Assembly: GCA_016722635.1 (NCBI GenBank)
Contig: JADKIX010000011.1
Span: forward strand, 319,760 to 383,759
Direction: 5' to 3'
DNA from: Rhodospirillaceae bacterium
Lineage (GTDB): Bacteria > Pseudomonadota > Alphaproteobacteria > JAEUKQ01
Length of the DNA: 64,000 nucleotides
Part shown: positions 4,560 through 45,268 of the stretch, one piece after another
Layout: each line of letters opens with the position of its first letter
Position numbering within the stretch: the stretch's first letter is position 1
Translations under genes and position numbers: made by a program
The notes under the pieces: model-generated
What the model saw: only the letters and a program-made list of their open reading frames with translations
Database searches by the model: none
Told to the model about the DNA's origin: nothing

Positions 4560-5078
4560 TTATGACGCATCATAGATAAGTTTGTATTTCCGAGACATTC
4601 TATCCATAGTCAAACGCAGGGGGAACCCCCCTTGCAGTTTTTGCCGCAGCCTGTAGATGTGGCTTTCCACCGTTCGGGTTTCAATATTATTGGCATAACC
4701 CCAAATTTCTTTTAGTAAATCCTTGCGGTTCAACCCTTCCGGCCGATGATGCAATGCTTTTAAAATGGCTATTTCTTTTTCCGTTAAATAGACTTTTTTA
4801 TTGTTTTTTTTACAAAATATATATTGCTGCAAAGGATCAAAAAGATAGAGATCTGTTTCAATTGGTTTCCGTTCATTATTTTGCAACAGCAACTGTAAAT
4901 ACTCAACCAACTGCTGCAGACGGAATGGTTTTTGCAGCCATTTGATCCCGCCTTGACGATATTCAGCCTCCCTATCGGTGGCCGCACTCAGGATAAGAAG
5001 TGGTTGATCTGGACTGGCATGTCTAAAATTTGCCAAAAAATCGTCCATAACCCCTTGATCAAAGCCATCAAGATCCAA
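4560..5078 (-). CDS. OmpR-family response regulator, disrupted; the intact gene would span 4560..5214, with a +1 frameshift in the T5 run at 5171-5175
   Basis: C-terminal winged-helix trans_reg_C domain plus the C-terminal two thirds of a receiver (LDLDGF...LSAAT...QKPF); upstream in-frame and -1-frame segments encode the missing beta1-alpha1-beta2 (MVVSHDVFLISIIK / TDLGNKLGIAVDYTQELSDIY). Confidence 0.7.
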   Translation of the reverse strand: MDLDGFDQGVMDDFLANFRHASPDQPLLILSAATDREAEYRQGGIKWLQKPFRLQQLVEYLQLLLQNNERKPIETDLYLFDPLQQYIFCKKNNKKVYLTEKEIAILKALHHRPEGLNRKDLLKEIWGYANNIETRTVESHIYRLRQKLQGGFPLRLTMDRMSRKYKLIYDAS

Positions 5079-5376
5079 AACAATGACAGGCTTATGAGGA
5101 CGTGGTGGGTATATATCAGATAGCTCTTGGGTGTAATCAACAGCAATTCCTAATTTATTACCTAAATCAGTTTTTAATAATTGAGATCAAAAAAACGTCA
5201 TGGCTTACCACCATGATTTGAGCCGGGATAGCTTTGTTATTTTTTAAATGGCCCAAGTTTTCTTCCTTTTGCTCCCTGCAGCTAATTTTTCTTAACCATT
5301 CTCATCGTAATATGTCATATATTATAAAATTGATTATGAAACAGTGCCAACATTTTATTTTAAACGATAAGAACCC

Positions 5377-6495
5377 ATGACTGCGAAAGAACCACAGCCC
5401 TACATCTCAGCCTCTGCCCTAACCTACCGTTGCATCAGCGAAATAAAGCGCGGCAATCCTGTTATTTTGCAGCATCCAGCGGCCGCTTGCTTTTTTATAG
5501 CTTTAGACAGCTTGTCGGCTGCCGGATGGCGCCAATTATCCGCCCAATTTTCCGCAGATTGGCGTTTAGTCATTAGCCAGAACCGGTTATCCAGCCTGGA
5601 ACAACAGCCGCTTCCTCCTCCTGCGTCTAACCAGGCAGTCGTCCGATCCTTACCAACCTGTTCTTATCAACAGCTCCGTGAATTATTATCGCTGGATGCT
5701 TTACCAACAACAGCTTACATTTCATCTAACACTCTTACTGTTGACATAGCCGAGAAAACCGCCCTTGCTTTGTTAAGACAAGCCGGTTTAATGCCCTTGG
5801 GAATCAGCCAATTTTTGCTGGCCGAATCGATTCCTTCTTATACAGGAAAGCATCATATTCTCTCTTTCAGTCTGGATCAATTGCAACCCATAGGCTCACC
5901 CAACAAAGAAGTGGATTTTGTAGTGGAAACCCTACTGCCCCTGACTGCTGCCGAAGAAAGCCGCATTATTTTATTTCGGGAAAAGGGCGCTGAAACAGAA
6001 CATATGGCTGTCATTATCGGTAACCCCGATTTCACCAAACCCGCGCTTACCCGGATTCATTCATCCTGTTTAACGGGTGATGTGCTTGGCAGTTTACGCT
6101 GTGATTGCGGGTCACAACTGCAACAATCAATTGAATATATGGCAAAACACGGGGGCGGGGTTTTAATTTATTTATTACAAGAAGGCCGCAATATCGGTTT
6201 GGCCAACAAACTACGCTCCTATCATTTGCAAAACCAAGGTTTGGATACGTTGGCAGCCAATTGGCATTTAGGGTTTTCGGCGGATGAACGCTCTTTTGAG
6301 CTGGCCACCATTTTGCTAAAACATTTGGGGATTTCGTCTATCCAACTGCTATCTAACAACCCCTTGAAATCACAGGCCCTGCAAGCAGGCGGGATAAAAA
6401 TTGACCGGATGGTGCCGATGCTGGGACGCCGCAATGCTTTTAATCAGGATTATTTAAAAACAAAAAAACAAAAAATGGGACATCATTTGTCATAG
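5377..6495 (+). CDS. ribA: GTP cyclohydrolase II (RibA) with a degenerate DHBP-synthase (RibB)-like N-terminal domain
   Basis: RIHSSCLTGD...RCDCGSQL zinc and GTP-binding motifs; N-domain keeps the RibB-like ALALLRQAGLMPLGISQFLL segment but lacks the NEGDL and HTE catalytic motifs. Confidence 0.75.
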   Translation: MTAKEPQPYISASALTYRCISEIKRGNPVILQHPAAACFFIALDSLSAAGWRQLSAQFSADWRLVISQNRLSSLEQQPLPPPASNQAVVRSLPTCSYQQLRELLSLDALPTTAYISSNTLTVDIAEKTALALLRQAGLMPLGISQFLLAESIPSYTGKHHILSFSLDQLQPIGSPNKEVDFVVETLLPLTAAEESRIILFREKGAETEHMAVIIGNPDFTKPALTRIHSSCLTGDVLGSLRCDCGSQLQQSIEYMAKHGGGVLIYLLQEGRNIGLANKLRSYHLQNQGLDTLAANWHLGFSADERSFELATILLKHLGISSIQLLSNNPLKSQALQAGGIKIDRMVPMLGRRNAFNQDYLKTKKQKMGHHLS

Positions 6496-6589
6496 AAGCT
6501 GACACCTGACCCTTTTTTTTAAGCACTGTAGCCATAAAAACGGTTGGAGGATTTTATTGCTTAGCATCGATTTTGGTGGTTTTTCATCC

Positions 6590-7352: not shown

Positions 7353-7374
7353 TTTCATCCTAACGATATCAAAA

Positions 7375-8484
7375 CTAGAAGCCGATCGTCATACCAAATT
7401 GGAAGGTATACGACTTATAGTTATCATTTCCAGCAATCTTTGCCTTATAAACATCATGGGTAACCGCGCCATCTAAAGTCACGCCAGTTCCTAAAGCATA
7501 AGAGGTGGTGATCATATAAACATCATGGGTATCTTTTTTGGAGACATTGTCCAAGTCATACCAAGCGCGCAGCCAGGTAAAGCCGAACTTGAACGCGTCC
7601 ATTTGCCATGTGCCTGTTAAACCAAAGGTTTTGCTGTCCAAAGTATGAGCGCTACCCAAGTTAAATCCTTGTTGATAGCCCATGCCCAAGCTTAAATTGC
7701 CGAAGGTAACCGCACCACCAAACTGGTAGTAGCTGGCTTTCCCGCTGCCTTTATTGGTTTCAGGGTCAAATGCTTTTTCCCAACCGGCATAGGCGCTAAC
7801 GCCAAAGCTGCCAATGGTCACATCATAGGTGGCCCCTAATGACCATTCCCTGGAATCACCACTATTGCCACCATTCAGACCGCCTGCTGACCCATCCGGG
7901 AAGTTACTGGCATCATCTTCGGTATCATCAATCATGTAAGATGTGGCCACCCGGAACCCACCGAAAGATGGCGAGAAATAGGCAATCTTGGTTCCTTTAT
8001 CGTTAATAGTATTGCAAACGTCTGTTGAGTCACTATTAACTAATTGCAGACCGTCTCTACCCAAATTGCTGAAATTCATGGCGCCAGCAACCGGGAAAGC
8101 ATCGGAAGCTGTGCTTAAACCACCGCACAATAACCCAGCAGCGCTGCCAAAGTTACCAATACGCACTTCACCCAAGCCACTCTTTAAGTAAGCATAGGTG
8201 GCATCGATTTGATCGCCCTTTGTTTGACCTTCCAACTCGAATTTAACGCCAGCTGTGACCCCGATATCCATCGTGAATTCGCCGCTAAAATGAACTTCGG
8301 TATTTTGCTTTAAATTGGCGTTGCGACGGCCATCACCTTCGCTATATTTACTATCAGCGGTAAAACCGAGGGCTGCGTGATAAAAGCCAGAAATACCCAA
8401 TTTTAACGGCTCGCCTGCATTAGCAGCCGAGAAAGAAGCAACACTCATCAGTAATGTGCTACCCAAAAGAATTTTTTTCATCAT
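7375..8484 (-). CDS. outer-membrane porin (Gram-negative beta-barrel porin family)
   Basis: signal peptide, alternating amphipathic beta-strand pattern, Gly/Ser/aromatic rich, C-terminal ...MTIGF with terminal Phe. Confidence 0.7.
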   Translation of the reverse strand: MMKKILLGSTLLMSVASFSAANAGEPLKLGISGFYHAALGFTADSKYSEGDGRRNANLKQNTEVHFSGEFTMDIGVTAGVKFELEGQTKGDQIDATYAYLKSGLGEVRIGNFGSAAGLLCGGLSTASDAFPVAGAMNFSNLGRDGLQLVNSDSTDVCNTINDKGTKIAYFSPSFGGFRVATSYMIDDTEDDASNFPDGSAGGLNGGNSGDSREWSLGATYDVTIGSFGVSAYAGWEKAFDPETNKGSGKASYYQFGGAVTFGNLSLGMGYQQGFNLGSAHTLDSKTFGLTGTWQMDAFKFGFTWLRAWYDLDNVSKKDTHDVYMITTSYALGTGVTLDGAVTHDVYKAKIAGNDNYKSYTFQFGMTIGF

Positions 8485-9132
8485 CTTTGGTTTCCCAAGT
8501 TAAAAGTTAATTAAATACAAAAATTTCACCTGAAAAAGTCTTCCTTAGAAGAAAAACTGTACCCCTGCAAAATTTTTAACAAAACCATAAAGAATATATA
8601 ATATTCTGAAGTCCAGGATACCGCCCTATTTGTTATACTCCAACTTGCCGACACTCGGCATTTTCGAATAAAACGTTAGATGTTTCGTGTAAGCCCCTGA
8701 ACAATAAGAAAAAATATATATTTAATGCTTAACAGTTTTTCATCTTATCTAGGTAACTGGCGTGGTCAAGCGTATTCTATGCTGAATCCCACCAGATTAT
8801 AAGATTTTTTTACTGCTGTTGCAGTTATGCAACATTGGCCTATGCATGCATGACGATTATTTGATTGCACTCGTTCACTGTTGCTGGCCTGAGTGTTTTG
8901 TCCCGTCGAGGCCACCCTGATCTTGATAAGAGGCCATTCCCGAACATTGCGGCCCTTATGTTAGGCCACCTGGTCAATAAAGAATAGTCACTCCTAAAAT
9001 ATTAAGGAAGGCTGACCAAATCGGCCAGTTTGTTTTGTAAATGGATTGATATGTTCCATAAAAAAATGCTACCATTTCCTAATATAATTGTGTATTGTTG
9101 ACCCTATAATATGATTATTTCAGGAGTATCCG

Positions 9133-9718
9133 ATGTTGACCACCCCTTCTGTTCCGAAAAAGCTTTGCTTAAACACCTCTTTTTCATACCGTGTCTGCAC
9201 GAAACTTTTGCTGATTTCCTTCGCCGGTTTTATCCTGGCCAATTGTTCTGCTGGGGATCCCAATGATCCTGGTATCCAAGGGGCGACGGGGGCTGAGCAG
9301 CGGCGCATCCGCAACGGCGGCAATCAAACGGTTTGGGGCGATGGCGGCTTGAACTTATTTGGCAAAAACAATAAGGGGCCGGTCGTGGTTGAAGGGGTTG
9401 GGGTCAACAGCTTTCCTGTGGCGCGCCTCCCTGGATGCTATTTCCTTTATGCCGCTGGTTTCTGCTGATCCTTTTGGCGGTGTCATCATTACCGATTGGT
9501 ATAGCAGTCCGGAACTCCCAAATGAGCGGTTTAAGGTGAATGTACGGATTTTAACCCGTGATCTGCGGGCAGATGGGATTAGCATTTCCTTATTCCGCCA
9601 AACCCGGACAAATGCCAATGCCGCATGGGCAGATGCCATTACCAGCAAAAAGGCTATCCGCGATTTAGAAGATGCGGTTTTGGCCCGCGCCCGCGAATTA
9701 CGAATCGGCGCCCGTTAA
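9133..9718 (+). pseudogene. alphaproteobacterial lipoprotein (DUF3576-like), split by a +1 frameshift at the TTT run 9412-9414
   Basis: ORF 9133-9468 carries a signal peptide/lipobox and ORF 9359-9718 carries the conserved domain (AFLWRASLD...GGVIITDWY); removing one T gives a continuous ...GVNSFLWRASLD... Confidence 0.6.
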
Positions 9719-9903
9719 TTCAAGTCGCCTGAAAAAAGATCAGGGTTTTGATCAATCCCCTCCTTATATTTAAGGCACGGCTTGGATATAATGCTAGGGG
9801 CGAGGATATAGGGAACCTGGTATGAAAGGGTTAGGTGAATTGGCCTTTTGTACCAGAGGGATTCATAGCGATAGAATGGTTTTATTTGAGAGCGATGGGG
9901 CAA

Positions 9904-12438
9904 ATGTCTCGATATAATTTCAAGGAAATTGAATATAAATGGCAACAACGATGGGAAAGTAAGGGAACTTACCATTGCAACCCAGATACTTCCCAGCCAA
10001 AATACTATGTTCTTGGCATGTTCCCATACCCTTCCGGGCGGATCCATATGGGCCATGTCCGCAATTATATGATTACCGATGTCATTGCCCGTTATAAAAG
10101 GGCCTGTGGCTATAATGTGTTACATCCTATGGGTTGGGACGCCTTTGGCTTGCCAGCGGAAAATGCCGCTATCCAACATAACATTCACCCAGCCCGTTGG
10201 ACTTATGAAAATATTGCCTTAATGAAGGAACAATTGAAATCGCTAGGATTTTCGTTCGATTGGTCCCGGGAATTAGTTACTTGCCATCCTGACTATTATC
10301 GGCATGAACAAAAAATGTTTTTGGATTTGTGGAAAAAAGGGCTGGTTTACCGGAAGCAATCGGTCGTTAATTGGGATCCCACCGACCAAACTGTTTTGGC
10401 GAATGAGCAGGTGATTGATGGCCGCGGCTGGCGTTCAGGAGCGTTAGTTGAAAAACGGTATTTGTGGCAATGGTTCTTTAAAATCACCCATTATACCCAA
10501 GAACTTTTGGAAGGCCTGGATACTTTAACCGAATGGCCGGAAAAAGTTCGCACGATGCAGCAAAACTGGATCGGTTTATCGCATGGGGCGCTGGTGCAGT
10601 TTGCCCTGCGGCGGCGCCTGGACGTGATTAATGTTTTTACCACCCGTCCTGATACTTTATTTGGAGCTGCCTTTTGTGCTATCTCCGCGAATCACCCGCT
10701 AGCGCTTGAGTTGGCTAAAAGCAGTCGTAAGATTGCCACATTTTTGGAAGAATGCGGACAATCTGCTGTGAATGAAGCAACATTAGAAAAAATGCCGAAA
10801 AAAGGCGTCGATACAGGTTTGAAGGCTATTCATCCGTTGGATCCCCGCATTGAATTACCGGTTTTCATTGCCAATTTTGTCTATATGGACTACGGCACCG
10901 GCGCCATTTTTGGCTGCCCGGCACATGACCAGCGGGATTTGGAGTTTGCCAGGCAATATCAATTACCAGTAAAACCCGTTGTTACCCCTGCCTCCTATCA
11001 AGCAAACGATTTTCAAATTCAAGATATTGCTTATACAGAAGATGGGATTTTGCAGCATTCCGATTTCCTGAATGGGTTGACGGTGGCAGATGCCCAAAAA
11101 AAGGTGATTGAAAAACTAACCCAAATTGGCAAGGGAAAATCCCTTGATGCTTTCCGGCTGCGTGATTGGGGGGTATCGCGCCAACGGTATTGGGGCTGCC
11201 CTATCCCGGTTATCCATTGCCCTGATTGCGGGGCAGTGCCTATGGCTTTAGAAGATTTGCCTTTGGTGTTGCCGGAAGATGTCAGTTTTGATCAACCTGG
11301 CAATCCGCTTGATCATCATCCTACTTGGAAATATGTGGATTGCCCCCGTTGCGGGAAGTCCGCGCAACGGGAAACCGATACCTTGGATACTTTTGTTGAG
11401 TCTTCGTGGTATTTTGCCCGCTTCTGTTCACCGCAATCCTCCGCTTCTTTTCAAGCCGCCGATGCCCGTTACTGGTTGCCGGTCGATCAATATGTGGGTG
11501 GCGTTGAACATGCGGTATTGCATTTATTATATGCGCGTTTTTTCACTCGGGCGTTGCGTGATTGCGGCTACTTAACGTTAGATGAGCCTTTCAAAGGCTT
11601 ATTTACCCAAGGGATGGTCGTTCACGAAACCTACCGCCATCAGCAGGGCCATTGGCTTTTCCCCCATGAGGTAGAAAAAAAGCCTGCTGGCCAATATGTA
11701 TGCTCAGCAGATCAAACGCCGGTTACGGTGGGTCGGTCTGAAAAAATGAGCAAATCAAAAAAGAATGTGATCGATCCAACCCAAATCATCGAGATGTATG
11801 GGGCAGATACTGCCCGTTGGTTCGTGTTATCCGATAGTCCTCCTGACCGTGATTTTGAATGGACTAATGCTGGTGCCGAAGGAGCTTGGCGTTTTATTCA
11901 GAAAATATGGCGGTTATTATCTTTATTACATAACCCATCCCCGTCGGCAGAGTCGTTGCCATTATTCCGCCGGACAATCCATAAAACGATTGCTGGCGTT
12001 ACGGCTGATATTGAGGCTTTCCGATTTAACCGAGCTATCGCCCGCCTGTATGAATTGGTAAATGCCTTCAGTGACAATATCACTAAAAGCGATTTGCAAG
12101 AAGGGTTAGAGACATTGGCACAACTGATCCAACCTTTTATGCCCCATTTAGCTGAAGAGCTATGGCAGCAACTAGGCCACCGTCAATCCATCATGCAGCA
12201 ACCCTGGCCAAAAGCCGATGAAGCCCTTATCCAGGAAGAGACCCACGTGATTGCCATTCAGATCAATGGTAAGATGCGGGATACTGTCACAGTACCCAAA
12301 GAGGTATCAGAACAAGTATTGAAGGAAAAAGCCCTTCTGCAACCCGCCATACAAAAATTTCTTGCTAATCGGCCGATCAAAAAAATAATTGTTGTGCCGA
12401 ACCGCTTAATTAACATCATGGTAGATGACACCAAATGA
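9904..12438 (+). CDS. leuS: leucine--tRNA ligase; start taken at MSRYNF, and the ORF is open from 9835
   Basis: HMGHVRNY (HIGH) and KMSKS motifs, editing domain, full length. Confidence 0.92.
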
Positions 12439-12953
12439 AGATAGCCCGCCTGCCGCCGTCACGGTTGATCTGTTTCTTGGTTATATCTTTTTTGCTTTCT
12501 TCCTGCGGTTTTCGTCCGCTTTACGCCCCTGCTTTGAGCACCAACAATACGGGCCTTTCCCTATATAATATTGTGGCTATCCAAGGGCTAAAGAATCGCT
12601 TGGGACAAGCGGTGTATACGGAATTATCCAATCAGTTATTATTGGTACCAGCCCCCTCCGACAAACATTATATTTTATCCCTTATATTAAAAGAAACTGA
12701 ATCAGACTTGGTCTTGGATAGGGGGGGGGTGATTATTCGCAAGACATACAAGATAACCGCCGCCTATCAATTGCAGCTCCAAGGCAGCGATCCTATCTTG
12801 CTCAAGGGAGTGGCCCAGTCAGACACCCATTTTAATTATGTCCTTTCCGGTTATGCAGCTTATGTTGCCAAGGAAGAGGCTCAATTGCGCTTAGCGAAAG
12901 AACTTGCCTATCAGATCCATCAACGCGTCAGCATTTTCCTAACTTCCCGCTGA
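12435..12953 (+). CDS. lptE: LPS-assembly lipoprotein LptE
   Basis: lipobox LSSCGF; conserved leuS-lptE-holA operon order; ATGA overlap with leuS. Confidence 0.75.
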
Positions 12954-12956
12954 TTT

Positions 12957-14009
12957 ATGAAGATTTCGCCGCAAAAGTTTGAAAGCCTCTTATCATCCTC
13001 TCAATCACCTTCCCCTTTTTTTGGTTTTGGAACGATCCTTATTTTCGGCCCAGATCACGGCTCGATCAGGAATTATAGTGAACGTTGTATCAAAAAACTG
13101 TTAGGCACTCCTCCTGATCCTTTTCGCTTCAATAGTTTCTTTTGGAATAACGCGCAAGAAACGGGTTTATTAATTGCCGATTGTTTAAACGAGTTTCCTT
13201 TATCCGGTGGCCACCGGGTTGTGCAGGTACGGCAAGTTACGGACAGCTTTTTAGCGCCCTTAAAAGACATTTTAACCCATGGCACCCATCAAAGCTTCCT
13301 GTTATTGGAAGGAGATGATTTGCCTGCCAAATCTACCCTGCGCAAATTTATGGAAGCGCACGGACAAGCAGGGTTATTAGGGTGTTATCCCTTAGATGAG
13401 AAGGAACAAGCGTATTTCATTGAACGCACCTTGACAGCCCATGGCATGAGAGCCGATAGGGACGGGTTGTTGCTATTGCAGCGTTATTTGCCAGCTCATA
13501 AACTGGCTATTGAAAATGAAATTACCAAATTGGCGCTCTATCTTAGCCCTCAACCTACAACATCTTCCTCCAACCTACTGACGGTTGATATCATTTCACT
13601 ATGTTTAGGGGATCAAGGTGAGATATCGCTTCATGATTTGGTTTATAGTTTTGCCGGACAGAAACTAGATGATTTTTCAACTCATTACCCGCGATGTTTG
13701 GCGGAAGGGGAAACTCCGATTTCGATCATCCGGGCAGTTTTGCGGCATCTGCAACAATTTTGGCGCGCCCGGGTGATTATGGATGGGCAACAGCTTTCCC
13801 TTGATCAAGCAGTGATACAATTAAAACCCCCTATATTTTATAAATATCAAGCCGCTTTTTGCCGTCAATTTTCTTTATGGCCGCTTGAGCGCTTAATGGC
13901 TACTTTTCTAGAATTAACTAATTTGGAAATTCGCTGTAAGCAGCCCCATGCACCCGCCTCGGAAATAACTTTTCACCAATTGCTACAAATCATGCAAATA
14001 AATAGTTAA
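12957..14009 (+). CDS. holA: DNA polymerase III subunit delta
   Basis: about 340 aa, position after lptE, delta-subunit N-terminal similarity. Confidence 0.7.
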   Translation: MKISPQKFESLLSSSQSPSPFFGFGTILIFGPDHGSIRNYSERCIKKLLGTPPDPFRFNSFFWNNAQETGLLIADCLNEFPLSGGHRVVQVRQVTDSFLAPLKDILTHGTHQSFLLLEGDDLPAKSTLRKFMEAHGQAGLLGCYPLDEKEQAYFIERTLTAHGMRADRDGLLLLQRYLPAHKLAIENEITKLALYLSPQPTTSSSNLLTVDIISLCLGDQGEISLHDLVYSFAGQKLDDFSTHYPRCLAEGETPISIIRAVLRHLQQFWRARVIMDGQQLSLDQAVIQLKPPIFYKYQAAFCRQFSLWPLERLMATFLELTNLEIRCKQPHAPASEITFHQLLQIMQINS

Positions 14010-14052
14010 ACGCCTACCGCTGGTTTTTGATGCGCCTGGAATGATAAATAAT

Positions 14053-14068
14053 CGTTTCACGTGAAACA
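14053..14068. promoter_or_regulatory. parS: parS centromere-like site, 15/16 match to TGTTTCACGTGAAACA
   Basis: cGTTTCACGTGAAACA palindrome in the holA-parB convergent intergenic region. Confidence 0.7.
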
Positions 14069-14310
14069 AAGAACCTTATATAAGAGTCAAGCAGCTACTG
14101 TTCCGGATTCCCGTTACAAAACAGCGCCAGGAAAAATGTTTAGTTGCCAATTTTCCAGTTGGACGGATTAGCCCTCTATTTTCTTATCACTGCTCTAGGG
14201 AAGACCTAAGGCAATTTCAAGGAAAGTGACTGGTTTTAAAAAATTAAAAAATCCTGCCTATGATCCTGGTGTCAAAAGGCTATCGCCATTCCTTTTAGGT
14301 AGGTGGCAGG

Positions 14311-15177
14311 TTATTTTTTTTGTGCCTGCAACCGATGGAGGATGGCTTCTAATTCCTGCAAGGTTTTATACCGCAATGTCAGCATACCGCCGTTCCCATG
14401 CAGGGTAATGCGTGCTTTTGCCCCAAGCAAGGTTGATAAATCTTTTTCCAAGGCAATAATTTCTGATTGACGGTTTTGCCAACGATTAGCTGCAATGTTT
14501 TTTAAAGCTTTATGGTTTTTGCGGCTTAATTCCTCTGTCTCCCGCACGCTTAAATCTTCCGCAATCACCTGTCTTGCTAAACGCACCGGATCCTTGGCAT
14601 TAAGTAGCGCGCGGGCGTGACCCGCGGATAAATCGCCGCGCGTCAGTAATTCTTTAATTTCCGCGGGTAAATCCAGCAATCGCATCAGGTTGGCAATATG
14701 ACTGCGGCTTTTCCCAACCATTTCTGCAATTTCTTCCTGTTTTTTGCCGAATTCATGGAGCAAGCGGTGATAGGCTTCCGCTTCTTCCAATGGCAGTAAA
14801 TCCTGGCGTTGCAAATTTTCAACCAGAGCAATCTGCAGAACTTCCTGGTCATTCATTTCCTTGATAACAACCGGTACTTCTTTTAAGGCAGCAATTTTTG
14901 CTGCCCGCCACCGGCGCTCACCCGCAATAATTTCATACTGTCCCGCAAGATTGGGGTGCTTCCTGACCAATAAAGGTTGCAAAATCCCATCCTGCCGGAT
15001 GGATCCAGCCAATTCATTCAATTGTTCCGGCAGGAATGTCCGCCTTGGCTGTAAGGTGCTGGGTTGTAGCACATCATGGGCCAGTAGCAGGAATGAAGGG
15101 GATGATGTTTCTTCGCCTTCCACCATATTGCCAAATAAAGCCGCTAACCCGCGCCCTAAATTTCGTTTTTCAACCAT
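14311..15177 (-). CDS. parB: chromosome partitioning protein ParB
   Basis: GERRWRAA ParB box and HTH, N-terminal RGLAAL. Confidence 0.92.
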   Translation of the reverse strand: MVEKRNLGRGLAALFGNMVEGEETSSPSFLLLAHDVLQPSTLQPRRTFLPEQLNELAGSIRQDGILQPLLVRKHPNLAGQYEIIAGERRWRAAKIAALKEVPVVIKEMNDQEVLQIALVENLQRQDLLPLEEAEAYHRLLHEFGKKQEEIAEMVGKSRSHIANLMRLLDLPAEIKELLTRGDLSAGHARALLNAKDPVRLARQVIAEDLSVRETEELSRKNHKALKNIAANRWQNRQSEIIALEKDLSTLLGAKARITLHGNGGMLTLRYKTLQELEAILHRLQAQKK

Positions 15178-15195
15178 GATTTTATACCCCAGAAA

Positions 15196-15978
15196 TTAAA
15201 TAACCAGTTTTTCACGGCGCACCATTTCGGCTGCTAATTGGATGTAAGCTTGGGCCCCAACGCTTTGATGATCATATAATAATACCGGTTTTCCGTGGGA
15301 AGGGGCTTCCGATATTTTCACGTTACGCGGGATAACCGTTTCATATACCTTATCCCCGAAATATTGGCGCGCATCCCCCGCCACTTGATTACATAAATTA
15401 TTGCGCCGATCATACATGGTCAAGACAATGCCTTGGATCTCAAGCCCCGCATTCAATCCCGCCCGTACCCGTTCAATGGTTTTAATCAGCAAGCTAAGGC
15501 CCTCCAAAGCATAAAACTCACATTGTAAAGGCACCAAAACTTGAGCGGCGGCGACAAACGCGTTTAGGGTTAATAAGTTTAAAGAAGGCGGGCAATCAAT
15601 GAAAATAATATCAAAAAGCTTCTTGTCTATTTTTTGCAAAGCCATTTGTAATTTATGTTCACGTTTTGGCATTTCCACCAATTCAATTTCCGCCCCCGCT
15701 AATTTGATCGAGGCTGGAATGATAAAAAGGTCAGGAACCTGGGTGGTTTGGATCAGCGGGGTTGGGTCCTTATCCGCAATCAGCATGTCATAAGTGGACA
15801 ATTGGCGTTTGGTTTGATCAATCGCCAAACCGGTGCTGGCATTCCCCTGGGGATCCAAATCAACCACCAAAATCTTTAACCCATAAGCGGCTAAGGCGGT
15901 TGCCAGATTCACGGCAGTAGTGGTTTTACCAACCCCCCCTTTTTGATTAGCAATCGCAATAATTCTTGGTTTATTCAT
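15196..15978 (-). CDS. parA: chromosome partitioning ATPase ParA/Soj; start at MNKPRII, ORF open to 16017
   Basis: deviant Walker A KGGVGKTT. Confidence 0.92.
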   Translation of the reverse strand: MNKPRIIAIANQKGGVGKTTTAVNLATALAAYGLKILVVDLDPQGNASTGLAIDQTKRQLSTYDMLIADKDPTPLIQTTQVPDLFIIPASIKLAGAEIELVEMPKREHKLQMALQKIDKKLFDIIFIDCPPSLNLLTLNAFVAAAQVLVPLQCEFYALEGLSLLIKTIERVRAGLNAGLEIQGIVLTMYDRRNNLCNQVAGDARQYFGDKVYETVIPRNVKISEAPSHGKPVLLYDHQSVGAQAYIQLAAEMVRREKLVI

Positions 15979-16092
15979 CAGACTGCCTTTACATTCTAGG
16001 GATATTTTGCCAACCACGGCAATGGCTGGCTTACTTTACTTGCTTTGCCTATTTTAGAATTTTTTGAGCCCATCACTGCCTCGGTTTTGGTG

Positions 16093-16728
16093 TTAGGCGA
16101 TTCGCGTTATTTTTTCAATGATTAAAATCTTAGCTTGCAAATCTGTTAAACTAGAGTGGGCTTGATACGAAAAATTCCAGTGCTTTTGCGCCTGTTGGAT
16201 TTCTTCTTTCCATAATTTCCCTTTTAAGAAAACAGCCTTGGCCTGGTCATGCCATTGATGGCGGCAAAGGTTAAATAATTGATCCAATTTTGCCAGCGCC
16301 CTGGATGTTACTATATCAATTTTCAGGAATTCAACTGTTTCCACCCGTTGATTAAGTACGGTTATTTTTTTTGATGCAATAGCTGCAGTTCCAAACAGCT
16401 GATAGGCAACTTCCTCCAAAAAAATCGCTTTGCGCTGGTCTGACTCAACTAAAACAACTTCTGGGACACCCATGATGGCTAAAACTATTCCCGGCAAACC
16501 GGCGCCCGATCCCATATCGATTATCTTTTGGGGAAGCACTGGTAATAAGGTCAGGATTTGGCCGCTATCTAAAATATGACGTTCCCAAATATCCCCAACC
16601 GTTTCCTCCGCAATCAAATTCAACCTTTTTTGCCATTGGCCGAGAAGGGTCACATATAATTGCAGGCGCTGAAATGTTTCACGTGAAACATGTAAAAGGG
16701 CTGCACATTCTTCTGCGGTTTTTGTCAT
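16093..16728 (-). CDS. rsmG: 16S rRNA (guanine527-N7)-methyltransferase RsmG (GidB)
   Basis: SAM motif DMGSGAGLPG; synteny with mnmG and parA. Confidence 0.9.
   Translation of the reverse strand: MTKTAEECAALLHVSRETFQRLQLYVTLLGQWQKRLNLIAEETVGDIWERHILDSGQILTLLPVLPQKIIDMGSGAGLPGIVLAIMGVPEVVLVESDQRKAIFLEEVAYQLFGTAAIASKKITVLNQRVETVEFLKIDIVTSRALAKLDQLFNLCRHQWHDQAKAVFLKGKLWKEEIQQAQKHWNFSYQAHSSLTDLQAKILIIEKITRIA
16675..16690. promoter_or_regulatory. parS: parS centromere-like site, perfect 16/16 TGTTTCACGTGAAACA, inside the rsmG 5' coding region
   Basis: exact palindromic consensus ParB-binding site. Confidence 0.8.
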
Positions 16729-16748
16729 GGGTCCAAGCTTATGATCAA

Positions 16749-18615
16749 TTATGCCGTTTGCTGAACGGGCTTTTTATAGGCATATTTCAATAAAATCGTT
16801 AAAGCAGCTGGGGTGATGCCCGGAATACGGGAGGCGGCCCCAACACTATACGGCTTGGCTTGATTAAGCTTTTTTTGCAGCTCGGCCGACAAACCAGGAA
16901 TACCTGAAAAATCCAATAATGGTGGCAAAAAAAGTTCTTCATCTTGACGGAATAACCGGATATCGGTTTCATGCCTTTTCATATAACCAGAATATTTGGC
17001 TTCAATTTCCAATTGCTCTACAATAGCGTTCGGAACCCCCACTAGATTTGGAAAAATTTTGCATAATTGCTGCCAATCTACTAGTGATGCAGCCAACACA
17101 TCCAACACCGATCGTTTAACCCCGTCCGCATTGACGCCCACACCCAAGCGTTGCCATTCTGTCGGGGTGGCCGACATTTTTTCAAGTGTTTGCTGCGTGG
17201 TTTGTAATTGTTCCATTTTGGTTATGTAATGCTGCTGACGAAGCGCACCCACACACCCTATTTTGATCCCACGCCCAGTTAAACGGCGATCGGCATTATC
17301 ACTGCGCAAATGTAGGCGATATTCTGCCCGTGAGGTAAACATGCGGTAGGGTTCATTTGTTCCCAAAGTAACCAGATCATCGATCATAACCCCGATATAG
17401 GATTCACTGCGGTCAAAAAATCTCGGGTGCCTTTCCACTGGCCTTATAAGCGGCATTCAATCCTGCTACAATCCCTTGCGCTGCAGCCTCTTCATACCCC
17501 GTAGTTCCGTTGATTTGGCCTGCCAAAAACAGGCGGGGCATTTTTTTTGCCTCAAGCCAAGGATATAATTCCTTTGGGTCTACAAAATCATATTCAATGG
17601 CATATCCTGGCCTGATCACTTTCGCATTGGCTAAACCCGGGATGGTTTTCAAAAGTGCTAGCTGCACATCTTCCGGCAGGGACGTGGAAATGCCGTTGGG
17701 ATAAACGGTATCGTCATCCAAACCTTCCGGTTCTAAAAATATCTGGTGCCGGGAACGGTCTGCAAAACGCACGACCTTGTCTTCAATAGAGGGGCAGTAA
17801 CGCGGCCCAATGCCTTCAATTTGGCCAGAATACATGGGGGAGCGATGCAAATTGGTCCGAATAATCGCATGAGTCGCCTCATTCGTGGCGGTTAAATAAC
17901 AAGGGATTTGTGGGGTTGTAATAGCCGTGGTTAGATAGGAAAAAGCCGGGATGGGAAAATCGCCGGGCTGCTTCTCCAAGCCTGACCAATCAATGGTCCG
18001 CCCATCTAGTCTGGGAGGAGTGCCTGTTTTCAAGCGCCGCAATTGAAACCCGATTCGCTCGAGTGAATTTGAAAGCCCTAAAGACGGTTTTTCTCCTACC
18101 CGGCCAGCTGGAACCTTTTTCTCGCCAATATGGATAAGGCCGCGTAAAAACGTACCGGTGGTAATCACCACAGCGCCCGCATAAAGGTTCTTTCCCTCAG
18201 CTGTCTGCACGCCGATGATTTCGTGGCTCTTCTCATCAACCAAAAGATTTTCAACGGATGCCTGGTAAATCTCCAGGTTTACCTGTTCCGCCAAGGCCGC
18301 TTGCATGGCAGCCCGGTATAATTTACGGTCGGCTTGCGCCCGCAACCCTCGCACCGCATGCCCTTTACTGGCGTTTAACATACGGAATTGGATACCTGCT
18401 TTGTCAGCTACCCGTCCCATCAACCCATCTAGCGCATCAATTTCCCTGACCAAATGTCCCTTGCCCAATCCACCAATGGCTGGGTTGCAGGACATCTCCC
18501 CAATCGTTGCCTGTTGGTGGGTCACCAGCAATGTCTTGGCCCCTAAACGAGCCGCCGCCGCCGCCGCTTCACAGCCAGCATGGCCACCCCCAATGACGAT
18601 CACATCTACTTTCAT
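16749..18615 (-). pseudogene. mnmG: tRNA uridine-5-carboxymethylaminomethyl synthesis enzyme MnmG (GidA), split by a +1 frameshift in the A6 run 17415-17420 (may be a sequencing artefact)
   Basis: ORF 17413-18615 is the N-terminal 400 aa ([13 protein letters not shown] motif) and ORF 16749-17456 is the C-terminal 235 aa (YRMFTSRAEYRL); deleting one A joins ...KAPEIF to DRSESYIGV... Confidence 0.85.
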
Positions 18616-18674
18616 CTTATAAACCCTACCGTTCTGAAAATTATTCGCCTTATATTAGATACGGATGAATTTGC

Positions 18675-20063
18675 CTATTTGCCAATGCAAAATTCCCTGA
18701 AAATAACGTCCAACATCTCTTCGATATGGACCCGCCCGGTGATTTCACCCAAGGCCCTTATGGCCAAGCGAAGATCTTCGGCCATTAATTCTATAGATAC
18801 GGTCATATCAGCTTGTGCTAAGCTCAGCAAGCATTTTTCCAATGCTTGGCGGTGGCGGTGGCGGGTAATCAGGGGGGCAGAGCCAATTGCTGTTCCCACC
18901 ATTTCCCCTATTTTCTGTTTCAAGAACTCCATAAAATCCGCTAAGCCCGCACCAGTTTGCAAACTGATAAAAAAGGTATTTGGTGCGGGTGATGCTGCCA
19001 TAGGAACAGAAGGGGATAGATCAATTTTATTGACCAAAAAAATTGTCTCCGAAGTCACTAATTCCCGAATATCATCGGGTATTTTCGGCCAGTCTTGTGC
19101 CGAAACCATCAGTAGCTGGATATCACTTGCCAACGCGTGCTGCCGTGCCCGCCTGACACCTTCCTCTTCAATGCTATCCGTGGTTGGCCGCAACCCCGCC
19201 GTATCGGCAATCGTGACCGGTACCCCCCCGATATTCAAGGTTGTTTCCACAATATCGCGGGTCGTGCCAGCAATAGGGGAGACGATGGCAACATCTCGCC
19301 TTGAAAGCCAGTTAATCAAGCTTGATTTGCCAGCATTTGGTGGCCCTACGATGGTCAGCATCAATCCTTGCCTGATCCGTTGGCCGCGATTGCCGTCTGC
19401 CAGGTGGTTTTTAATCTGGGTTTGCAAATCAGCCAATTTTTGCTTGACCATGTGGTTTAATTCAGCCGGTAATTCTTCATCAGGAAAATCAATATAAGCT
19501 TCGAGATAAGCCGCCAAATGCACTAAAGCATGCCGCCAAATTTCGTATAATTTTCCCAGTTCCCCTTGATATTGGCGCAAGGCTTGGCGACGCTGAGCTT
19601 CCGTTTCTGCCGCAATTAAATCAGCCAATCCTTCAACGGCCGTCAAGTCCAACTTTCCGTGTTGAAAAGCCCGTTTGGTGAATTCGCCAGCTTCCGCAAG
19701 ACGGGTTTCAGGAAACTGCTGTAATTCCTTAATCAATATTTCAACAATGGCGCGGCTGCCATGCACCTGCAATTCTGCCATATCTTCCCCAGTAAAACTG
19801 GCAGGGTTGGGAAACCACAAAACCAACGCTTCATCTAAGATTTTAGCTTGCTGCCCTGCCAGGTTATCGCTGGAGCTGCTGTTGATATATAGTAAATTTC
19901 GCTGAGCCCGCCGAGGCAAAGGCAGTTTTTTTTGGGTGATTTGGGTTAGGATATCGGCAGTTTTTGGGCCAGAAATACGAATAATGGCAATCGCTGCGGG
20001 CAATGACCCGGTCGATAAAGCAAAAATAGTTTCCGTTAGATTGGGATCAGCAGGAAGGGACAA
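18675..20063 (-). CDS. mnmE: tRNA modification GTPase MnmE (TrmE)
   Basis: G-domain GPPNAGKSSL...TTRD, C-terminal CxGK. Confidence 0.92.
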   Translation of the reverse strand: MSLPADPNLTETIFALSTGSLPAAIAIIRISGPKTADILTQITQKKLPLPRRAQRNLLYINSSSSDNLAGQQAKILDEALVLWFPNPASFTGEDMAELQVHGSRAIVEILIKELQQFPETRLAEAGEFTKRAFQHGKLDLTAVEGLADLIAAETEAQRRQALRQYQGELGKLYEIWRHALVHLAAYLEAYIDFPDEELPAELNHMVKQKLADLQTQIKNHLADGNRGQRIRQGLMLTIVGPPNAGKSSLINWLSRRDVAIVSPIAGTTRDIVETTLNIGGVPVTIADTAGLRPTTDSIEEEGVRRARQHALASDIQLLMVSAQDWPKIPDDIRELVTSETIFLVNKIDLSPSVPMAASPAPNTFFISLQTGAGLADFMEFLKQKIGEMVGTAIGSAPLITRHRHRQALEKCLLSLAQADMTVSIELMAEDLRLAIRALGEITGRVHIEEMLDVIFREFCIGK

Positions 20064-20421
20064 GGGGAGCTTTATCCGTTGGTTTTAACATCAATCGATC
20101 GACAATCTTCCCTTGCAGAAGGTGGTTTTGGACGATTTCCTCAGCTTCTGCAACCGTTTGGCAATGATACCAAATGCCTTCGGGATAAATCACCACCACC
20201 GGACCTAATTCACACCGGTCCAAACACCCCGCGCTGTTAATACGCGTATCATCAAGCCCCAATTCTTTGGCACGCGCCTTCATATAATTCCGCAGTTTTT
20301 CAGAACCCTTAACCTTACATGAGCCGCGCGCATGATCGGCAGGACGTTCATTGGTGCAAAAAAACACATGATTGCGATAATAAAGCGGAACGGGAGAATT
20401 TACTTTGGGATGAGTGGTCAT
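20047..20421 (-). CDS. thioredoxin-like [2Fe-2S] ferredoxin
   Basis: four Cys in the FFC...GSC...GCLDRCELGP arrangement typical of thioredoxin-like 2Fe-2S ferredoxins; 17-nt overlap with mnmE. Confidence 0.65.
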   Translation of the reverse strand: MTTHPKVNSPVPLYYRNHVFFCTNERPADHARGSCKVKGSEKLRNYMKARAKELGLDDTRINSAGCLDRCELGPVVVIYPEGIWYHCQTVAEAEEIVQNHLLQGKIVDRLMLKPTDKAPLVPSC

Positions 20422-20669
20422 TTTTTACTGTCTTTTTTCTGAAAACTGCTACTAAAATCGGCGAATTTCTTTTGCCATTCCTGCCAATTTTCGGACATTC
20501 CGCCCATCCAGCTTTTCAGCAATTTTTCAGGACTTGATTCGCTGATGGCTGATAAAAGTTTTTCCTGGATTTCTTTTAAAAGCTCCTGTTGCATAGCACT
20601 CACATCCGGCAATCCGACCAGCCGCCTGATTTCCTCAGGTGGGCATTCAACCTCAATATGAAATTTCAT
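20418..20669 (-). CDS. small conserved hypothetical protein (83 aa, acidic/Trp-rich), coupled to the ferredoxin by an ATGA overlap
   Basis: ORF with 4-nt overlap to the downstream gene; no recognised domain. Confidence 0.4.
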   Translation of the reverse strand: MKFHIEVECPPEEIRRLVGLPDVSAMQQELLKEIQEKLLSAISESSPEKLLKSWMGGMSENWQEWQKKFADFSSSFQKKDSKK

Positions 20670-20882
20670 GTGGCTATTTCCCTTACTGCAAAGGTTATTT
20701 TAGGGGGCTTCATTGGGATGGTACAACTTTTTGGCTTGCCGTCAAATCTTTCGATCAAAGTCTGATGATTCTGTGGGTTTAAGCGAAGAATAATGCGTGC
20801 CAGAAACATAAGCTTGCAAAGACAGCGCGCTTATATTTTGTACAAAGCCCACAAGGATATAACTGCTAGCGTAACCCTATCG

Positions 20883-22139: not shown

Positions 22140-22339
22140 GAAATTTTAAACTATAACCATTAAGGTGTGTGAAATGATAATGTCTTGTTTGCCGTTACAA
22201 AGCTCAGATTATTGATCGTATAAATCAACGTAACGCAAGACGTTTTTGATGGGGGATAACAGATGATATATATTCTTCCACTGCTAGTAGCTGAAAAATA
22301 AAGGGATGTCAAAGGGAAAATAAGCTATTGCTTGCAAAA

Positions 22340-25005: not shown

Positions 25006-25024
25006 GTTATCCAACTTATCCACC
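25006..25024 (+). promoter_or_regulatory. tandem DnaA boxes TTATCCAAC and TTATCCACC
   Basis: two 8/9 matches to TTATCCACA, one nucleotide apart. Confidence 0.55.
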
Positions 25025-25105
25025 AGTCTAATAAAAAAATATCCCCTTGTGAATAGATCAATGGATGAAATGTTGATAAAAGGGAAGAGAAAACAACGCG
25101 GGGTA

Positions 25106-25114
25106 TTTATCCAC
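25106..25114 (+). promoter_or_regulatory. DnaA box TTATCCACA (perfect)
   Basis: exact 9-mer consensus. Confidence 0.6.
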
Positions 25115-25165
25115 AGTTTGTTAGAGATGCTAAAAAAGAACGATTTAAAATAACAGGAAAAATAA

Positions 25166-42589: not shown

Positions 42590-42597
42590 GACTGCTG

Positions 42598-43338: not shown

Positions 43339-43518
43339 TATAAATAACTTTCATTGCTTAAAATGCCTGAATATTATCACTTTATTCATAAACGATATGA
43401 AAATAAAATGATAGAGAAGTGTTGAGAAGTTGCGAAATAATTCCTATTTACTAGAAACGCATAAGCAAATTAATTTTGATTGGGACTATCCTCAAGAAGG
43501 GTTGATACAGTTGAAACG

Positions 43519-44580
43519 ATGGTGATAAAAAGCAAAGCCAGTATCCAAGAGCTTAGCCTGAGGTCACGGGAAATTTTCCGTCATATTGTGGATACGTACC
43601 TTGAAACGGGCGAACCGATCGGCTCAAAGGTTATTTCGAAGCGGGCGAACCTGAATTTGTCACCGGCTACTATCCGAAATGTGATGGCAGATTTAGAGGA
43701 AGCTGGGTTACTTTTTGCCCCCCATATTTCTGCGGGTCGTATGCCTACGGAATTAGGGTTACGATTATTTGTCGATGGGTTACTCGAAATTGGGTATTTG
43801 GGGGAAGATGAACGACGCAATATGGAGGAAAAATGCCAAGTGGGGGGTCATCATTTCCCTGTTATGCTCGAACAAGCCATCCAAGCCTTGTCAGGACTTT
43901 CCCGTTGCGCCGGATTGGTTGTGGCACCCACCACCGAATATAGGTTGAAGCACATGGAATTCCTAAAGCTTGGGCCTGATCGTGCCTTGGTGGTCATGGT
44001 ATCGGAGGACGGGCTAATCGAGAACCGCCTGATTGATTTACCTAAAGGATTACCGCCAGCTGCACTGGTGGAAGCGGGAAATTATTTGACTGCGCGATTG
44101 ATTAATAAAACGTTGGCTGAAGCAACGGTTGAAATTACCAAAGAATTGGATGATCATCGGACGGAATTGAATTTATTGACAGAAAAGGTTATCAAAACGG
44201 GGTTAGCTACCTGGGCAGGGACAAAAAATGAGCGTATCCTTATTTTGACCGGGCAAAGCCATTTACTAGAGGAAGTGAAAGAATTAGAAGATTTGGAACG
44301 GGTCCGCATTTTATTTCAAATGCTTGAGAATAAAGAATCAATGATTCGTTTGCTCGAAGAATCAAAAAAGGCTAAAGATGTCCAGATTTTTATAGGCTCT
44401 CAAAATGAATTATTTAATTTGACCGGTTGTTCTTTAATTATCGCCCCTTACCAGAATAACCGGCAACAGGTGATCGGGGCGGTAGGTGTGATTGGCCCTA
44501 GCCGGATAGATTATGCAAAGATTATCCCTATGGTCAATTACACAGCCCAACTGATTGGGCGGTTTTTAACCAAAAAATAA
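43519..44580 (+). CDS. hrcA: heat-inducible transcription repressor HrcA; ORF open from 43480
   Basis: N-terminal wHTH (LSLRSREIFRHIV...GEPIGSK); conserved hrcA-grpE pairing. Confidence 0.88.
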   Translation: MVIKSKASIQELSLRSREIFRHIVDTYLETGEPIGSKVISKRANLNLSPATIRNVMADLEEAGLLFAPHISAGRMPTELGLRLFVDGLLEIGYLGEDERRNMEEKCQVGGHHFPVMLEQAIQALSGLSRCAGLVVAPTTEYRLKHMEFLKLGPDRALVVMVSEDGLIENRLIDLPKGLPPAALVEAGNYLTARLINKTLAEATVEITKELDDHRTELNLLTEKVIKTGLATWAGTKNERILILTGQSHLLEEVKELEDLERVRILFQMLENKESMIRLLEESKKAKDVQIFIGSQNELFNLTGCSLIIAPYQNNRQQVIGAVGVIGPSRIDYAKIIPMVNYTAQLIGRFLTKK

Positions 44581-44610
44581 GATATTTTTTATGATGCGAA
44601 GGTAGAAAAA

Positions 44611-45268
44611 ATGACAAAGCCTCAACATACAAAATCTTCCGATCAGCAGATGTCAAAGCCTGCCGAGGAAGTGGAACAACCTCTTCCTGATTCACACCAT
44701 AAGAGTGAACAGGCAACATCCGTAGCTGCAGACGAATCAGTCTCTAAAGCAGCGGAAAAAATAGGTATTTTTGGAGCAAAAATTATCTGAAGCAGGTCAA
44801 GAGATTGGCCAATTAAAAGACCAGTTATTACGGACATTGGCGGAAAGCGATAATATCCGCAAAAGGATGCAGCGCGAAAAAGAGGATAGCCAAAAATTTG
44901 CGGTCAGCAATTTTGCAAAGGATTTGATTGCGGTTTATGATAATTTGGAAAGGGCCCTTAAAAACCCCATTGCCACGGAAGATCCATTGATCAAGAATTT
45001 CATTGAAGGGGTGACCATGACGGAGCGCCAATTGGCGGCAGTTTTTGAAAAACACCAGTTGAAACGAATTGTACCAATAGGTGAAAAATTTGACGGCAAT
45101 CAGCATCAATCCGTGATGGAAGTGCCGTCATCTACCCAACCTCCCGGAACGGTAGCAGATGTTTTCCAGGCGGGGTTTTCCCTTCATGATCGCTTGTTAC
45201 GACCAGCAATTGTTACCGTGGTCAAAGCTGCTTCAAAAGAGGAGGAGGCAGCTCGTAAAAACCAATAA
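44611..45268 (+). CDS. grpE: nucleotide exchange factor GrpE; the N-terminal 53 codons lie in a different frame from the core ORF (44771-45268), with a +1 frameshift in the T5 run 44768-44772
   Basis: core GrpE ORF LEQKLSEAGQEIGQLKDQLLR...; upstream -1-frame ORF from an ATG (44611) with an RBS encodes an acidic Ser/Glu-rich GrpE-like N-terminus; removing one T joins them. Confidence 0.75.

Follow-up and report, generated by a model that had tools for sequence, protein, structure and literature searches.

Single-base frameshifts in four conserved genes of a Rhodospirillaceae metagenome-assembled genome are very probably consensus errors from mixed strains

Several described systems provide precedents for conserved bacterial genes that appear broken by a single-base frameshift. 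The programmed +1 frameshift of prfB (RF2) occurs at CUU UGA C, where a slippery codon precedes a weak stop, and in Buchnera and Blochmannia poly(A) frameshifts in conserved genes are rescued by transcriptional slippage, which needs a tract of roughly nine or more bases to be efficient. Frameshifts can also enter a sequence as it is produced. Indels in Nanopore consensus sequences cause frameshifts, and the homopolymer errors of Nanopore R9, 454 and Ion Torrent data take the form of single-base indels that cut gene calls short (PMC9262707), while long-read pipelines for metagenome-assembled genomes (MAGs), in work on activated sludge, are described as yielding chimeric population genomes that carry platform errors (PMC8012365).

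Against this background we compared the reading frames of the window, the whole 64,000-nucleotide stretch of Rhodospirillaceae DNA that was analysed, with those of related loci. Four of its about 64 genes, encoding a winged-helix regulator, a DUF3576 lipoprotein, MnmG and GrpE, are split by single-base breaks, and removal of one base restores a full-length protein in each (Table 1). That these conserved genes carry one extra base apiece had been claimed in a first-pass annotation of this DNA and is borne out, as is the claim that all events share one direction, four of four being +1. Once repaired, the proteins are as long as their intact orthologues: 218 aa for GrpE (nine intact same-species variants), 621 aa for MnmG, 231 or 217 aa for the regulator (P0266-P0294) and 194 aa for the lipoprotein (L086 and L089). 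In the repaired proteins, the Pfam domain GrpE extends over residues 42-205 and DUF3576 over residues 89-191 (profile positions 1-101 of 101), both across the junction; Trans_reg_C matches regulator residues 139-195. The Pfam matches of mnmG are divided between its fragments, with GIDA on the 400-aa N-terminal and GIDA_C_1st plus SAM_GIDA_C on the 235-aa C-terminal portion, and APEIFDRSES occurs in all site-spanning members of the MnmG cluster among the matches listed. None of the four frameshifts was present in any independent assembly compared, the intact set comprising nine GrpE, 16 site-spanning MnmG, 21 regulator and four DUF3576 loci together with ten of ten motif matches from JGI.

The breaks stand in an otherwise undamaged setting. 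No further frame-breaking indels were found in the ~49 kb of the window alignable to relatives, and the ~64 window genes showed neither nonsense mutations nor deletions nor any second lesion. Outside the aligned regions, ten ORFs were scanned with NCBIfam and the profile reached the C-terminal end of the protein in eight, the exceptions being a GST-like ORF without a match and a PstS-family match that ends ~29 residues early; thus, no additional break is evident there. An Rfam scan of the entire window gave no match. Downstream of the breaks, synonymous codon differences outnumber non-synonymous ones by 12:2 in mnmG, 8:1 in the DUF3576 gene and 3:2 in grpE.

Table 1. Positions of the split genes, their junctions and related features in the window.
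Feature	Position	Strand	Description
Winged-helix regulator gene, OmpR-type C-terminal domain	4560..5256	-	231 codons after repair; split at 5184
T5 run blamed earlier for the regulator frameshift	5171..5175		Not the site
Regulator extra base	5184	-	A on + strand, T on gene strand, between two Cs: GATC[T]CAATT
Regulator frameshift forms	5184		GATCTCAATT, GATCTCAATTATT; intact alternatives GATCCAATT / AACTCAATT
DUF3576 lipoprotein gene	9133..9718	+	194 codons after repair; split near 9411
Lipoprotein junction CAG[C]TTTCC	9411..9414	+	Extra base is C at 9411 or one T of 9412-9414
Lipoprotein frameshift forms	9411		CAACAGCTTTCC, GTCAACAGCTTTCCTG; intact alternatives CAGTTTCC / CAGCTTCC
mnmG	16749..18615	-	621 codons after repair; split after residue 400 (...APEIF/DRSES...)
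A6 run (T6 on gene strand)	17415..17420	-	Sole true homopolymer-length change of the four sites
mnmG frameshift forms	17415-17420		GAGATTTTTTGACC, CCCGAGATTTTTTGACC; intact alternative GAGATTTTTGAC
Intergenic extra T, rph-hrcA	43477		T4 in window vs T3 in L075, L076
grpE	44611..45268	+	218 codons after repair; split at 44767
grpE junction ATAGGT[A]TTTTTG	44763..44773	+	Extra A at 44767
grpE frameshift forms	44767		ATAGGTATTTTTGG, AATAGGTATTTTTGGAG; intact alternatives ATAGGTTTTTT / ATGGTATTTTT

The sequences around the regulator and grpE junctions are unions of two intact haplotypes. For the regulator, one intact haplotype (L092) reads TTG ATC CAA and a second (L090 and L091) reads TTA ACT CAA; the window, with TTG ATC T CAA, equals the merger of ATC-CAA and A-CTCAA into ATCTCAA. 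An initial placement of this base as a G/A directly after a T7 run, taken from the 92% relative L001, was dropped because the closer haplotype L092 puts a T in GATC[T]CAA. For grpE, the first haplotype (L088) is ATAGGT-TTTTTAGAG, the second (L075) is AT-GGTATTTTTGGAG and the union found in the window is ATAGGTATTTTTGGAG, so that, as a merger of columns, ATAGGT-TTTTT and AT-GGTATTTTT give ATAGGTATTTTT. Written without gaps, the alleles are ATAGGTTTTTTAG in the intact L088, ATGGTATTTTTGG in the intact L075 and ATAGGTATTTTTGG in the window. When each haplotype pair was aligned with linear-gap scoring (3/-5/-4 or unit cost), the optimum for both genes contained two compensating gaps, and keeping all columns reproduced the window exactly. 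Random non-duplicative insertions would mimic the second haplotype in 1.07% of cases for one of these genes and 1.34% for the other, a joint frequency of ~1e-4. Moreover, the paired haplotypes are collinear and of equal length (231 aa for the regulator, 218 aa for GrpE); between such sequences no real crossover gains a base, and these blends are not products of in-register recombination and are unlikely products of random insertion. Only a gapped read alignment in which both columns are retained yields such a union.

It is very probable, judging from these sequence comparisons, that the four frameshifts are consensus-building errors in a MAG derived from reads of co-occurring related strains. 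At the regulator and grpE, the two intact strain haplotypes are separated by two or three neighbouring substitutions. Where gaps cost little, an aligner would render that difference as one insertion and one compensating deletion, and the consensus would keep the insertion and refuse the deletion, so that the output would hold the bases of both haplotypes and be one base too long. The exact software step is inferred; polishing of a long-read draft by partial-order alignment or from a pileup (e.g. with Racon or Medaka) would fit. The four reference haplotypes (L075, L088, L090 and L092) come from other samples, and their co-occurrence in the source sample is assumed. The surrounding sequence is itself mosaic. 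The regulator consensus alternates between its two haplotypes SNP by SNP, as expected of a chimeric population bin, and grpE carries alleles of the first haplotype on both sides of the junction, except for three alleles of the second at the 3' end. Natural recombinants between these lineages exist, for example P0287, so mosaicism alone is no proof. Under a majority vote, 'intersection' (-1) and 'union' (+1) errors should be equally frequent, and no intersection error was seen; with only two or three union events, this absence is uninformative.

The remaining two sites behave differently from this pair. In the lipoprotein gene, comparison with the 99%-identical L089 makes the extra base the C at 9411, since placement as a T of the T3 run costs one more substitution. 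The intact form CAG-TTTCC (AGT TTC) is found in L001, L086 and L089, the sister-species locus L101 has CAGCTTCC (AGC TTC), and the junction in the window consists of the AGT and AGC alleles side by side. The AGC allele was seen only in this 93%-identical sister species, and the site is a single SNP that standard scoring aligns without gaps. A 28-base form of the frameshift junction was carried by none of ten public matches in a JGI motif scan, which came mainly from distant taxa containing the motif, with L101 as the sole close relative. The lipoprotein insertion is probably, on these alignments, either of the same union type or a base inserted at random by the consensus in a codon that varies between strains. 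An earlier formulation, in which a third-codon-position SNP had kept both of its alleles, was replaced, because the regulator and grpE sites are multi-nucleotide differences with compensating gaps and the lipoprotein site is unsupported under standard scoring. At mnmG, the blend of two intact haplotypes seen for the regulator (L092 with L090) and grpE (L088 with L075) does not fit: haplotype mixing was considered, two L089 SNPs lying within 10 bases, and was ruled out as no union reproduces the window. Four relatives (L001, L086, L087 and L089) have A5 where the window has A6, and the mnmG event is, on this reading, a leftover homopolymer miscall of the ordinary kind, in which A5 became A6 and for which no strain mixture accounts.

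Alternatively, all four frameshifts could reflect a platform or an unpolished assembly that adds a base to T/A runs, the systematic over-calling that the first-pass annotation had proposed when it placed every event in a T/A homopolymer. That placement holds for mnmG, is ambiguous for the lipoprotein and fails for the regulator and grpE. The run blamed in the regulator, AAAAA on the gene strand, is identical in length and sequence in the intact L001, L090, L091 and L092, the T5 (44768-44772) and A5 (44778-44782) runs of grpE are unchanged in length in the intact L075, and the bases at 5184 and 44767 duplicate no neighbour. Homopolymer length is thus altered in only one of the four events. The mnmG change does suit over-calling, the intergenic change from T3 to T4 at 43477 may belong here too, and homopolymer indels of this kind are established for Nanopore consensus sequences; the truncation of gene calls by single-base indels is likewise shared with the errors of Nanopore R9, 454 and Ion Torrent. 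In contrast to those errors, however, three of four events here leave run lengths untouched and long runs are called correctly. When the window is set against L089, a 98-99% identical same-species short-read scaffold, 96 of the 97 A/T runs of at least 5 bases have equal length, and this includes every run of at least 7 bases (16/16), which argues that there is no systematic over-calling. Intergenic run lengths relative to the sister species differ in both directions. Two events are instead haplotype blends. The run-length comparison with L089 refutes over-calling as a general mechanism, and as the cause of all four frameshifts it is very unlikely.

The events could instead be real. Under one such reading, recent mutations in the dominant strain of the community have left the four genes as young pseudogenes or as split genes, with a truncated GrpE possibly translated from a TTG start at 44771. 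The sequence alone does not speak against this for the lipoprotein and mnmG, mnmG is dispensable in model bacteria, and a TTG with a weak AGG upstream lies exactly at the grpE junction, where PGAP has called a protein. This reading is nevertheless unlikely, as the bases at the regulator and grpE copy a second haplotype out of register in a way that neither mutation nor crossover produces, and as the direction is +1 throughout and two or more of the inserted bases duplicate no neighbour (the lipoprotein base being ambiguous), unlike slippage. The lesion of a genuine pseudogene would be expected to recur in independent sequence, with relaxed constraint or further lesions, and here each gene has one lesion, the downstream differences are mostly synonymous and no independent assembly shares a break. 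The pattern of indels points the same way: the window and the same-species L089 differ by three indels in 13.6 kb, two of which break conserved genes, indicating an indel pattern unfiltered by selection. A further reading keeps the frameshifts and has them read through by +1 ribosomal frameshifting or by transcriptional slippage on A/T tracts. Every junction does contain a codon that allows tRNA re-pairing in the +1 frame, and the mnmG shift codon is followed by UGA-C (UUU UGA C), resembling prfB in its slippery codon before a weak stop. In contrast to prfB, the mnmG site is not conserved among orthologues and no Shine-Dalgarno-like stimulator was seen at the right distance; the motif is an automatic by-product of a T added to ATT TTT GAC. 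Orthologues at 92-99% nucleotide identity are all in a single frame, with no conserved two-frame arrangement. The tolerated slippage tracts that the first-pass annotation had offered as an alternative, by analogy with AT-rich endosymbionts, find no support either. While Buchnera and Blochmannia also have frameshifts at A/T runs in conserved genes, the tracts here are 3-6 rather than ~9 or more bases long, GC content is about 45% (range 0.40-0.475), not that of an AT-rich reduced genome, and same- and sister-species orthologues are intact at all four sites. Recoding is thus extremely improbable. It is also highly improbable that the population truly carries all four +1 alleles and that the cell copes, for example by low-level +1 frameshifting at the mnmG UUU UGA C and re-initiation at the grpE TTG; were this so, a free-living-type alphaproteobacterium would be tolerating broken core genes.

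The reading as consensus errors from mixed strains retains the preference of the earlier work for an assembly artefact over biology, a choice supported by the intact relatives and the haplotype unions. The closest parallel is with the chimeric-population long-read MAGs of activated sludge, polished with Racon, Medaka and short reads (PMC8012365), which this assembly resembles in its MAG origin, its long contig (447,538 bases), the activated-sludge metagenomes from which the relatives L001 and L091 derive, the SNP-by-SNP mosaic and the single-base indels in otherwise intact genes. The link to that pipeline is one of resemblance, and the signature itself, a gapped multi-nucleotide polymorphism with each of its two columns kept, was read from the present sequences and not from PMC8012365 or PMC9262707.

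The errors have already reached the databases, and the claim that gene calls from this assembly under-report intact genes proved correct. On one 447,538-base contig, titled 'MAG: Rhodospirillaceae bacterium', the grpE ORF at 44771-45268 is deposited as a 165-aa protein (P0242, MBL0339306.1) and the regulator ORF as its C-terminal 158 aa, read from an internal TTG (P0275, MBL0339266.1); both truncated products are in nr. The mnmG and lipoprotein genes are probably flagged as pseudogenes. In the organism, grpE, mnmG, the DUF3576 lipoprotein gene and the regulator gene are almost certainly intact, and fragment proteins or pseudogene flags from such MAGs bias statistics on gene content and 'pseudogenisation'. 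The haplotype-union signature provides a way to spot this class of error that requires no reads, by asking whether the extra base, compared with intact alleles elsewhere, equals the allele of another strain one position out of register. Between rph and hrcA, the extra intergenic T may have arisen in the same way, as a fifth insertion of a single base.

Removal of a single base restored a full-length protein from each of the four broken genes. Pfam DUF3576 spans the junction of the repaired lipoprotein (profile positions 1-101 of 101), Pfam GrpE likewise crosses that of the repaired GrpE (residues 42-205), and the two mnmG fragments carry GIDA on one and GIDA_C_1st with SAM_GIDA_C on the other. 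These repairs and domain matches confirm that four conserved genes each hold one extra base, as the first-pass annotation had reported. Counted from the upstream TTG of its 231-aa orthologues, the first-frame part of the regulator amounts to 31 codons.

Window genes interrupted by one extra base
Gene	Position	Strand	Break
Regulator	4560-5256	-	17 codons in one frame from ATG, remainder in another frame
DUF3576 lipoprotein	9133-9718		frame change near 9411
mnmG	16749-18615	-	split past residue 400
grpE	44611-45268		split past ~52 residues

A LeuS-based scan of species-representative genomes identified L001 (MAG_MBR_AS.64, assembled with SPAdes), a sister species with shared synteny and 92% nucleotide identity. 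Protein searches and look-ups of contigs contributed more loci: L076, which belongs to the L001 MAG and spans window 34.5-55.3 kb; L086 (93% identical), taken from a Logan assembly; L089, an ENA scaffold whose 98.2-99.1% identity across 8441-22911 places it in the same species as the window; the same-species grpE haplotypes L075 and L088 (gene identity ~96% and ~99%, respectively); and two regulator haplotypes, L090/L091 and L092. All are intact at every site they cover. The 361-aa MnmG call of L089 is explained by a 100-N gap, not a frameshift; the scaffold has two such gaps (4437-4536 and 7640-7739), inside mnmG and parB. The sister-species grpE on L076 (~10030-10050, against window ~44648) contains an 18-base direct duplication that lengthens the disordered N-terminal region by six residues, a KSSDQP-type repeat (224 versus 218 aa).

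The four +1 breaks had been attributed to T/A homopolymers, a description that holds for mnmG only, where the window reads GAG ATT TTT TGA and all relatives ...ATT TTT GA(C/T), a true A5-to-A6 change on the + strand. The T5 of the regulator (5171-5175) is the same in all intact relatives and the extra base, at 5184, is the bracketed T of GATC[T]CAATT (gene strand). In grpE, intact L075 has the same T5 and A5 runs, and the A at 44767 is the extra base. Against the 99%-identical L089, the lipoprotein gene carries an extra C (CAG[C]TTTCC). Moreover, 96 of the 97 A/T runs of at least 5 bases are equal in length in the window and L089, including all 16 of at least 7, which excludes the systematic over-calling previously proposed. 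In the rph-hrcA spacer, an extra T at 43477 (T4, versus T3 in both L075 and L076) may be a further single-base insertion error, in non-coding DNA. Ahead of the DUF3576 gene lies a ~650-base spacer (8485-9132), devoid of ORFs and Rfam matches. It shows numerous small indels relative to L001 and L086 (92-93%), and a window-specific extra A at 9101 turns the TTGCCC of both relatives into TTGACC just upstream of a TATAAT.

The origin of the extra base is clearest at the regulator and grpE, each represented in public assemblies by two intact haplotypes. For the regulator these read TTG ATC CAA (L-I-Q; L092) and TTA ACT CAA (L-T-Q; L090/L091), and the window TTG ATC T CAA; for grpE they read ATA GGT TTT TTA (I-G-F-L; L088) and ATG GTA TTT TTG (M-V-F-L; L075), and the window ATA GGT A TTT TTG G. 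We aligned each pair under linear gap penalties, using either the Racon default scores (match 3, mismatch -5, gap -4) or unit costs, and with both the optimum has two compensating gaps, placing ATC-CAA against A-CTCAA and ATAGGT-TTTTT against AT-GGTATTTTT. Keeping all alignment columns, a union of the two haplotypes, yields the exact window sequence in both genes. Random non-duplicative insertions would mimic the other haplotype in this manner at rates of only 1.07% and 1.34% for the two genes. Their combined probability is about 1e-4, to which a modest correction for the choice among a few available haplotypes would apply. Because the paired haplotypes are collinear and of equal length, a genuine crossover cannot add a base, and only an alignment-and-vote procedure would produce such an out-of-register blend. 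At both sites one haplotype's allele set flanks the extra base on either side, which leaves the intruder as a single isolated column. The regulator consensus alternates between haplotypes SNP by SNP, with a full switch at ~nucleotide 240, giving it the look of a chimeric population consensus, although natural recombinants, P0287 among them, exist too.

At the lipoprotein junction the window reads AG-C-T-TTC, relatives L001, L086 and L089 AGT TTC, and L101, a 93%-identical sister from the JGI scan, AGC TTC. Since a single SNP aligns gap-free under normal scoring and the AGC allele, seen in L101, was found in no sequence within the species, this base is compatible with the same union origin rather than demonstrative of it. 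The 28-base frameshifted form of the motif occurred in none of ten public matches.

Several observations speak against real mutations. The four alleles are absent from every independent assembly; intact sequences number nine for GrpE (full-length variants), 16 for MnmG (spanning the junction), 21 for the regulator and four for the lipoprotein locus. All four events are +1, and in at least two the added base copies no neighbour (the lipoprotein base is ambiguous in this respect). Across the ~64 genes, nonsense mutations, larger deletions and second lesions are all absent. Two of the three indels relative to L089 in 13.6 kb break conserved genes, the opposite of selection's outcome, and downstream of the breaks most of the codon changes are synonymous (synonymous to non-synonymous 12:2 in mnmG, 8:1 in DUF3576, 3:2 in grpE). 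Tolerance through recoding, also raised earlier, fares no better: none of the frameshift sites is conserved, and the mnmG motif UUU UGA C follows automatically once a T is added. Transcriptional slippage would require much longer tracts than these, and at ~45% GC the genome cannot be called AT-rich. We consider it very probable that all four frameshifts are artefacts, and still more probable for the regulator and grpE taken alone. The earlier reading as assembly artefact thus stands, with a different mechanism: the cause is mostly consensus error over a strain mixture, not homopolymer over-calling. Their biological interest is low.

The predicted effect on gene calls is already public. One short NCBI member occurs in the 90% cluster of GrpE and one in that of the regulator: P0242 (MBL0339306.1, 165 aa, 'MAG: nucleotide exchange factor GrpE [Rhodospirillaceae bacterium]'), identical to window ORF 44771-45268, and P0275 (MBL0339266.1, 158 aa), identical to the C-terminus of the window's mosaic regulator. 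Both lie on a 447,538-base contig, and their identity shows the window to be part of this MAG. Their accessions are 40 apart and we count 39 intact genes over that interval; mnmG and the lipoprotein were therefore probably given no protein accession. The contig's length and the presence of alleles with k-mers expected in no read argue for a long-read draft with polishing. The accession range is presumably that of a Danish activated-sludge MAG set, a candidate link. That set was built with CANU, Racon, two rounds of Medaka and then Illumina Racon, and its bins are described as chimeric populations with up to 7.7% polymorphic sites (PMC8012365).

The regulator, considered together with proteins P0266-P0274, seems to be an atypical response regulator restricted to its lineage. 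Its C-terminus is an OmpR-type winged helix; the receiver-like N-terminal half has no match to Pfam Response_reg and carries SHD in place of the expected acidic pocket. A search of a 5.8-billion-protein set gave only nine matches, four of them close relatives. Two orthologues known from other assemblies, P0284 (HPI63112.1) and P0294, are 227 aa long and end in ...TMENVSEIQTDL instead of ...TMDRTSRKYKLIYDAS, suggesting that the reading frame shifts close to the 3' end in these entries, through genuine variation or a further assembly error.

This 64-kb alphaproteobacterial chromosome segment (~45% GC) holds an origin-proximal gene set of the usual type, parB-parA-rsmG-mnmG-mnmE-rho-hemH-hemE followed by maf-coaE-dnaQ-secB, with rph-hrcA-grpE-dnaK-dnaJ and a pst/pho cluster farther along; tRNA and Rfam scans of the window returned zero tRNAs and zero Rfam families. 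Replication probably starts in the hemE-maf spacer (24870-25165). GC content reaches its window minimum (0.399) in the 24-28 kb block, where cumulative GC skew also has its turning point. Positions 25016-25115 contain a cluster of three DnaA-box-like 9-mers, among them the window's sole perfect TGTGGATAA (25107-25115); window-wide, such matches are not above chance (19 observed, 15.5 expected). The parA-rsmG spacer carries a 12-base insertion (TGAGCCCATCAC) at 16065-16076 relative to L001.
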